From a virus (Duplodnaviria > Heunggongvirae > Uroviricota > Caudoviricetes), in IMG/VR virus record IMGVR_UViG_3300018488_000078: a stretch of 11,494 bases of DNA; one strand, written 5' to 3'. The notes beneath the pieces were generated by a model. That model made no database searches. It was not told where the DNA came from and saw nothing but the letters and a program-made list of their open reading frames with translations. This document shows, piece by piece, positions 11,354 through 11,494 of this stretch; position 1 is the stretch's first letter, and every line of letters begins with the position of its first letter. Made by a program: the position numbers and the translations under genes.

Positions 11354-11494
11354 TGAACCGCCCCGGAAATCCTGGAGACTAAACTCCCTGAGAAAGAGGT
11401 AAACAGGATGACTAAAAATACTCGTTTTTCCCCCGAGGTCCGTCAACGGGCAGTTCGTATGGTTCTGGAAAGTCAGGGCGAATATGACTCACAA
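11354..11494 (+). mobile_element. IS3-family insertion sequence (IS629/IS1203-like), left end; continues beyond the window
   Basis: Terminal sequence beginning TGAACCGCCCCGG at 11354, then GAGG and the orfA ATG; I recognise this as the IS629-type left end. Exact IS name needs a database check. Confidence 0.8.
11408..11494 (+). CDS. IS3-family transposase OrfA, N-terminal 29 codons (partial)
   Basis: Translation MTKNTRFSPEVRQRAVRMVLESQGEYDSQ, the HTH-containing N-terminus of IS629-type OrfA as recalled. Confidence 0.85.
   Translation, partial: MTKNTRFSPEVRQRAVRMVLESQGEYDSQ

Follow-up and report, generated by a model that had tools for sequence, protein, structure and literature searches.

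The 11,494-nt stretch of viral DNA analysed here (IMG/VR record IMGVR_UViG_3300018488_000078; hereafter the window) ends inside an insertion sequence, and our results point, with a probability of roughly 85%, to a simple event in a phage satellite: one 1310-bp copy of an IS629 isoform would have transposed into codon 40/41 of a 192-codon Bro-N gene. The element carrying this gene is a helper-embedded PICI that in turn sits in the portal gene of an E. coli lambdoid prophage. The insertion is a simple one: the two IS ends are oriented as expected and flanked by a GTTC duplication. It divides the gene into a 41-codon 5' stub (residues 1-41, followed by a TGA in the IS end) and a 3' fragment that has neither promoter nor start, while int and alpA upstream and the remainder of the satellite downstream are unchanged. 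The insertion appears to be recent, since no substitution is seen in the 3' fragment and other copies match the IS ends at 99.6-100% identity. The features of the locus are compiled in Table 1.

Table 1. Features of the window at and around the IS insertion (positions are those of the window).
Feature	Position	Strand	Details
Helper prophage part	1-2333		gpD-like gene start, S49 peptidase, portal C-terminal fragment
Satellite (helper-embedded PICI) body	2334..11353	-	assigned from gene content, att core and PMC10111431
Promoter-like site TTGACG-17-TAACAT	10165..10193	-	upstream of icd-like gene (9867-10064); consensus match only, match count equal to chance expectation
Opposite-strand gene pair	10255..10797	+	YlcI/YnfO-like gene, 101 aa (10255-10560), and 59-aa ORF (10618-10797); converge on Bro-N
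Bro-N gene (putative 'antirepressor'), 3' fragment	10894..11353	-	last base of codon 40 to stop (residues 41-192); 0 substitutions vs L007, L009, L011
Internal ORF, 107 aa, start Met86	10894..11217	-	ATG at 11217, AGGAGG at 11228-11233; annotated by gene callers in public assemblies
Target-site duplication, left copy, 4 bp GTTC (GAAC in Bro-N sense)	11350..11353	.	vs IS-free GTGTATCTGAACGGCGATCC; second copy at IS right end (L015, L016, L018)
IS629 isoform left end (IS3 family)	11354..11494	+	1310-bp IS; left inverted repeat ~11354-11378; orfA ATG at 11408, 29 codons to window end

The first base of the IS is position 11354 exactly, where the plus strand reads TGAACCGCCCCGGAAATCCTGGAGAC..., and its orfA, translated from the ATG as MTKNTRFSPEVRQRAVRMVLESQGEYDSQ, is open up to the window end. 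Compared with complete E. coli genomes, these 141 nt matched 5758 records in 3573 of 5426 genomes (66%), at a median of 3 and a maximum of 50 places per genome and at 39 places in one O157:H7 chromosome. Many of these matches are 100% identical (E = 6e-67), and all of them are annotated as IS3 family transposase. Among deposited phage records, the best match is a copy in phage JLK-2012 (JQ347801) that is annotated as "IS629 putative transposase OrfA" and 98.6% identical. The label "IS629-like insertion", which had been given to this DNA in a previous sequence-only reading, therefore passes a database check. The same reading described such elements as abundant in some pathogenic E. coli lineages; they are indeed abundant in E. 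coli but not confined to pathogens, since 66% of complete genomes carry at least one.

A copy from O157:H7 PV15-279, whose first 141 nt are identical to the window, is 1310 bp long and annotated with a programmed -1 frameshift transposase. At full length, this copy is 95.3% identical to the JLK-2012 (O55:H7) IS629, which falls within the spread of 4-5% reported among IS629 sub-types (PMC3271280), and the right 503 nt of the IS at our locus are 93.0% identical to the JLK-2012 copy. The present IS belongs to a sub-type with ~95% identity to the JLK-2012 copy and 99.6-100% to copies in O157:H7 PV15-279. Its terminal inverted repeats are imperfect and ~25 bp long, with 22 of the first 25 positions in agreement when compared by script: the left repeat in the window is TGAACCGCCCCGGAAATCCTGGAGA, and the right repeat seen on contigs L015, L016, and L018 is, reverse-complemented, TGAACCGCCCCGGGTTTCCTGGAGA. 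They show the 5'-TG...CA-3' terminus feature of the IS3 family, though an automated repeat search of the IS did not report them and they were found by manual and scripted comparison instead. The element shares its TG...CA repeats with IS629/IS1203/IS3411 of the IS3 family in EHEC and other E. coli, and like these it would be 1310 bp long with orfA/orfB joined via a -1 frameshift. Those elements duplicate 3-4 bp of target and frequently disrupt prophage genes (PMC3271280), and the mechanism here is no different.

That the left end of the IS abuts and truncates the 5' end of the Bro-N gene, as had been read from the sequence, is borne out to the base, with the IS beginning at 11354 and the Bro-N frame ending at 11353 without its nt 1-119. 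The window evidently represents a short-read contig end, and it stops in a multi-copy repeat as is typical of such ends, so that the junction could in principle be an assembly artefact, i.e., a repeat-induced chimera. We find this explanation hardly credible given that the identical junction occurs in independent assemblies from different assemblers and samples, and that a reciprocal junction exists with a duplication of the length reported for IS629. The left junction is also found in L013 (ENA ERZ27272485, 11,723 nt), which is 99.96% identical to the window, with five base differences that all fall at window 36-83, and which ends at the same base within the IS. Another contig, L014 (Logan ERR13621155), matches window 4105-11383 at 100% identity and spans the junction. 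Being shared by these two independent assemblies, the junction is no chimera of a single one.

The far side of the IS was sought by predicting the fusion peptide of the 5' stub for each possible length of target duplication. The 41-aa peptide expected for a 4-bp duplication (the first 40 residues and an N, with the stop codon TGA supplied by the IS end) has an exact match in the public protein collection, from which the stub peptides for 0-, 1-, and 3-bp duplications are absent; a homologue search with intact Bro-N had returned full-length relatives only and did not expose the stub. Contigs L015, L016, and L018 carry the right junction as ...GTGTATCTGAAC/TGAACCGCCCCGGGTTTCC... (slashes mark junctions), with the transposase on the opposite strand, i.e., in the form GAAC/TGAACCGCCCCGGG adjoining Bro-N nt 1-123. 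Genes on these contigs are ordered Nu1, A, W, the N-terminal portal fragment, int, AlpA, Bro-N nt 1-123, and the IS right end, and L015 encodes both Int (413 aa) and AlpA (85 aa) intact. Of the IS right end, L015 covers 503 nt, L016 147 nt, and L018 58 nt, and identity to the PV15-279 copy is 99.6-100%. L015 with the right junction and L013 with the left junction come from one sample, ERZ27272485.

Side by side, the two junctions read ...TATCTGAAC/IS and IS/GAACGGCGAT..., and the empty site reads TATCTGAACGGCGAT, so that GAAC flanks the IS on either side but is single in the allele without the IS. Target duplications of IS629 have been reported as 3-4 bp (PMC3271280). The paired junctions and the 4-bp duplication therefore argue for a simple insertion that split the gene and not for a deletion of the gene's start. 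The other IS end and the GTTC duplication, which the sequence-only reading had proposed to look for, were thus found on sibling contigs: the right junction is known from these, the window's own contig stops 141 nt into the IS, and the middle of the IS is unassembled at the locus, so that we infer a single complete IS from its two ends and the duplication. Assembled at the locus are the left 141 nt in the window and the right 503 nt in L015, of which the latter encode a fragment of an rve domain. These data also qualify the idea that the IS had removed the start and promoter of Bro-N. The start is separated from the frame but not removed, since start codon, alpA, and int are displaced by ~1.3 kb and intact on sibling contigs; as to the promoter, none is located immediately before the Bro-N start in the IS-free allele.

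A deletion or rearrangement that truly removed the 5' end of Bro-N, alpA, and int from the window's own genome is very unlikely on this evidence, because sample ERZ27272485 holds a near-identical left-junction contig together with the complementary right junction and its matching 4-bp duplication, and at least three assemblies share this right junction. In its favor, the window ends inside the IS with the far side unseen, IS629 is associated with IEE-promoted adjacent deletions (PMC9943667), and the left IS end abuts window 10999 rather than 11353 in one sibling genome (GCA_005397065.1; see below).

The gene disrupted by this simple insertion encodes, in its intact form, a "BRO-N domain-containing protein" of 192 aa (WP_001038675.1) that matches the Pfam Bro-N profile (PF02498) with residues 34-124 (E = 4.9e-20). 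The fragment left in the window, which reads NGDPWFVAKDVCAALE...GNRIQ and stop from 11352 on the minus strand, still matches profile positions 9-96 of 96 (E = 1.8e-18). In an alignment with seven intact alleles, the window lacks Bro-N nt 1-119, corresponding to residues 1-40 of 192 (MNKNIAVTGKGYARPVKKFCDIRDLVVLRFDSVNVRVVYL). The intact allele continues beyond window position 11353 as ...gccgttc/agatac..., and the remaining 459 nt are identical to the IS-free alleles of L007, L009, and L011. Bro-N also matches PHROG 2593 "anti-repressor" (E = 3.8e-85), though a role as antirepressor is putative because these annotation names are carried over by homology. A search of PDB sequences with Bro-N gave no match, and an AF2 model has a mean pLDDT of 58, with residues 25-40 forming, at low confidence, two of three N-terminal strands. 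Residues 1-40 are nearly invariant across 13 homologues of 85-97% identity. Variation among these homologues is concentrated in one patch, residues ~57-90 (window ~11085-11185), a possible specificity-determining surface.

Upstream of the junction, the fused frame of the 3' fragment is open for ~30 codons into the IS and contains no ATG, GTG, or TTG there, so that the IS-derived extension offers no fusion start. Versions of the truncated gene starting at an ATG (127 aa) or a TTG (129 aa) are absent from public protein records, in which only the 107-aa call beginning at Met86 is recorded, the first start of the fragment with a Shine-Dalgarno sequence. No promoter-like site reading outward from the IS end was found. 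We infer that the insertion is a null allele of Bro-N, since the lost residues are nearly invariant in homologues and a start at Met86 drops more than half of the Bro-N domain.

Whether loss of Bro-N matters to the satellite depends on how the element is switched on. It had been suggested from the sequence that the insertion may have locked the induction circuit, and this is unsupported, given that alpA and int are intact and that the downstream operon has a promoter-like site of its own. AlpA has been experimentally shown to be the master regulator and switch of Gram-negative PICIs (PMC11773190), and the trigger proposed for helper-embedded PICIs is helper late transcription running into int-alpA (PMC10111431), which lie upstream of the IS and hence of the insertion site. 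Downstream of the IS, the opposite-strand gene pair separates Bro-N from the icd-primase-capsid-terS operon, and the promoter-like site listed in Table 1 is a candidate for a separate promoter of this replication/late operon. Between the alpA stop and the Bro-N ATG lies a terminator-like, GC-rich hairpin with a T-run (L001 12899-12917; L015 ~6880-6905) that leaves ~25 nt before the ATG, and Bro-N is probably expressed by read-through of this terminator, e.g., from antiterminated helper late transcription, and not from a promoter of its own. The insertion adds 1.3 kb to the ~11-kb satellite and probably blocks neither AlpA/Int-driven excision nor expression of the replication/late operon, because int, alpA, and the late parts are intact and seem to be separately promoted.

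The opposite view would be that the insertion disables the life cycle of the satellite, either because Bro-N is needed to induce satellite or helper or because the IS is polar on a path from alpA through Bro-N to replication and late transcription. This view draws on the annotation of Bro-N homologues as anti-repressors, on the Bro-network gene eta of P4, which is part of an immunity/late-transcription circuit, and on read-through from an alpA homologue that feeds downstream genes (PMC10111431), with the hairpin between alpA and Bro-N suggesting that such read-through is regulated. We nevertheless consider it unlikely in light of the master role of AlpA (PMC11773190) with alpA and int intact, of the two opposite-strand genes and the separate promoter-like site between Bro-N and the icd-primase operon, and of the variability of the Bro zone among these satellites (PMC10111431). 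In addition, P4-type immunity RNAs (C4/isrK) have been reported in some PICI Bro zones and were not detected here, with no Rfam hit in the window at gathering thresholds or in the intact Bro zone of L001 at E <= 1. A relative with the same replication and late modules but no Bro-N (L008; see below) counts only weakly in the same direction, as it may be a recombinant scar. The position of a Bro-network gene directly downstream of an alpA-type gene is shared with P4 (eta/kil) and the Vibrio PLE (CapR), though the present satellite differs from these in having no detectable C4/isrK RNA and a Bro-N without sequence-level relation to a solved or characterised Bro protein.

The element hosting the interrupted gene is a satellite and not a phage. 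From the att side, its genes are a 93-aa ORF, a Nu1-like TerS, cosN, a second AlpA-like HTH, head decoration, capsid E, SSB, a D5_N primase, DUF4222, small ORFs, and the icd-like gene; the left end of IS-free relatives comprises int, alpA, and Bro-N, followed by the opposite-strand 59-aa ORF, the YlcI/YnfO-like gene, and the icd-like gene. Four ordered zones can thus be found, i.e., int plus alpA, Bro, replication (primase/SSB), and late. A class of helper-embedded PICIs with four zones, a dynamic and swappable "Bro zone", and integration sites in portal genes has been described by Tommasini, Mageeney and Williams 2023 (PMC10111431). The whole satellite splits the lambda-B-like portal gene of a lambdoid prophage: the N-terminal portal fragment (293 aa) precedes int on L015 and L007, the C-terminal fragment is located at window 1561-2334, and the att core AAGGCGAT at window ~2333-2340. 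Joining the halves restores ...AIVKAMYAATIES..., so that the portal gene reads intact only upon excision. As befits a helper-embedded PICI, the element lies inside and co-oriented with the split prophage late gene, and its att supplies no replacement copy. A doubled motif, GTGTATTGCA(A/G)TGTGTATTGC, is present near both att arms (window ~2415-2435; L015 5306-5326).

An exact lambda cosN, GGGCGGCGACCT, followed by CGCGGGTTTTCGCTATTTATGA, is found at 4119-4130 on the minus strand just upstream of the Nu1-like terS, and it lies in a 65-nt segment (window 4097-4161) that shares 95% identity with the cos region of the helper itself (L007 2040-2104). The satellite therefore looks cos-packaged; it encodes a TerS and homologues of capsid E/D but lacks portal, protease, and TerL. 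Its late zone also contains a second AlpA-family HTH gene (127 aa; 4187-4570, minus strand) between the head-decoration gene and cos/terS; in EcCIMP1, a second, non-canonical alpA has a different role (PMC11773190). With the published helper-embedded PICIs of portal group B:Phage_portal_2, the present satellite has in common int-alpA, the Bro zone, primase/SSB, a late zone with capsid E/D homologues and TerS, co-orientation in a split lambda-B-like portal gene, the doubled motif by the att arms, and a helper-copied cos (PMC10111431), while the IS within its Bro gene sets it apart from them.

Close relatives carry the allele without the IS, and so do 76 complete E. coli genomes, in which homology to the window stops exactly at 11353, so that the comparison with IS-free alleles proposed at the outset could be made. 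Over window 1-11356, the IS-free relative L007 is 99.92% identical without gaps, and the best complete RefSeq genome is 98.2% identical. The IS/Bro-N junction itself occurs in 0 of 5426 complete RefSeq E. coli genomes, and an exact scan of species-representative genome contigs for the 33-nt junction gave no match, with the allele lacking there.

Several relatives show other rearrangements at or near this locus. GCA_005397065.1 (L012 = BGIP01000082, 1-149; L016 = BGIP01000090) has the same right junction, yet its left IS end abuts window 10999 and not 11353, which reflects either a deletion of 354 bp next to the IS or another copy of the IS. Adjacent deletions of IS629 are known to be promoted by IEE (PMC9943667), and the left IS end lying 354 bp deeper in Bro-N fits the pattern expected of such excision or deletion, though a second IS copy would look alike. 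GCA_052996365.1 (L006 6045-7310; 99.85%) has an intact Bro-N and instead carries an IS600 in alpA with a 3-bp duplication, GGT, and a remaining AlpA stub of 45 aa. In the near-complete relatives L006 (20284-21497) and L007 (20280-21493), an IS3-family transposase gene (404 aa) directly follows the major capsid gene of the helper, where others carry the FI packaging gene, which indicates that the helper prophage is also IS-disrupted in these strains. In L008 (GCA_028533445.1), the same replication and late modules and helper late genes are present (99.7%), and homology to the window ends at 10135, within the region of divergent promoters that separates the icd-like from the ylcI-like gene; on its left side, L008 has another int (409 aa) and AlpA (62 aa) by chromosomal pntB and no Bro-N. 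L008 probably arose by recombination or deletion involving the embedded PICI and a chromosomal one, and we have downgraded it as proof that Bro-N is dispensable because the locus looks recombinant.

IS erosion of the satellite's left end thus recurs in this lineage, which is nothing unusual for mobile DNA of IS-rich E. coli. It is conceivable that the hits in the integration and Bro zones (IS629 in Bro-N, the further 354-bp loss in the sibling genome, and IS600 in alpA of another relative) are selected and not neutral decay, with silencing of regulators stabilising the composite of satellite and helper. We regard this as highly doubtful; if it were true, the helper's portal gene would stay split and both elements would be domesticated.

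Taken by itself, the insertion is an ordinary, recent gene disruption of a kind that has already been described, as has its host element, and as a textbook IS insertion in the accessory gene of a mobile element it matters little alone. It does explain the breaks of short-read assemblies at this locus and is a lineage marker common to several public assemblies. Beyond this, it provides a natural Bro-N knockout alongside isogenic IS-free relatives in a helper-embedded PICI, and comparing these alleles could show whether Bro-N takes part in the induction of satellite or helper.
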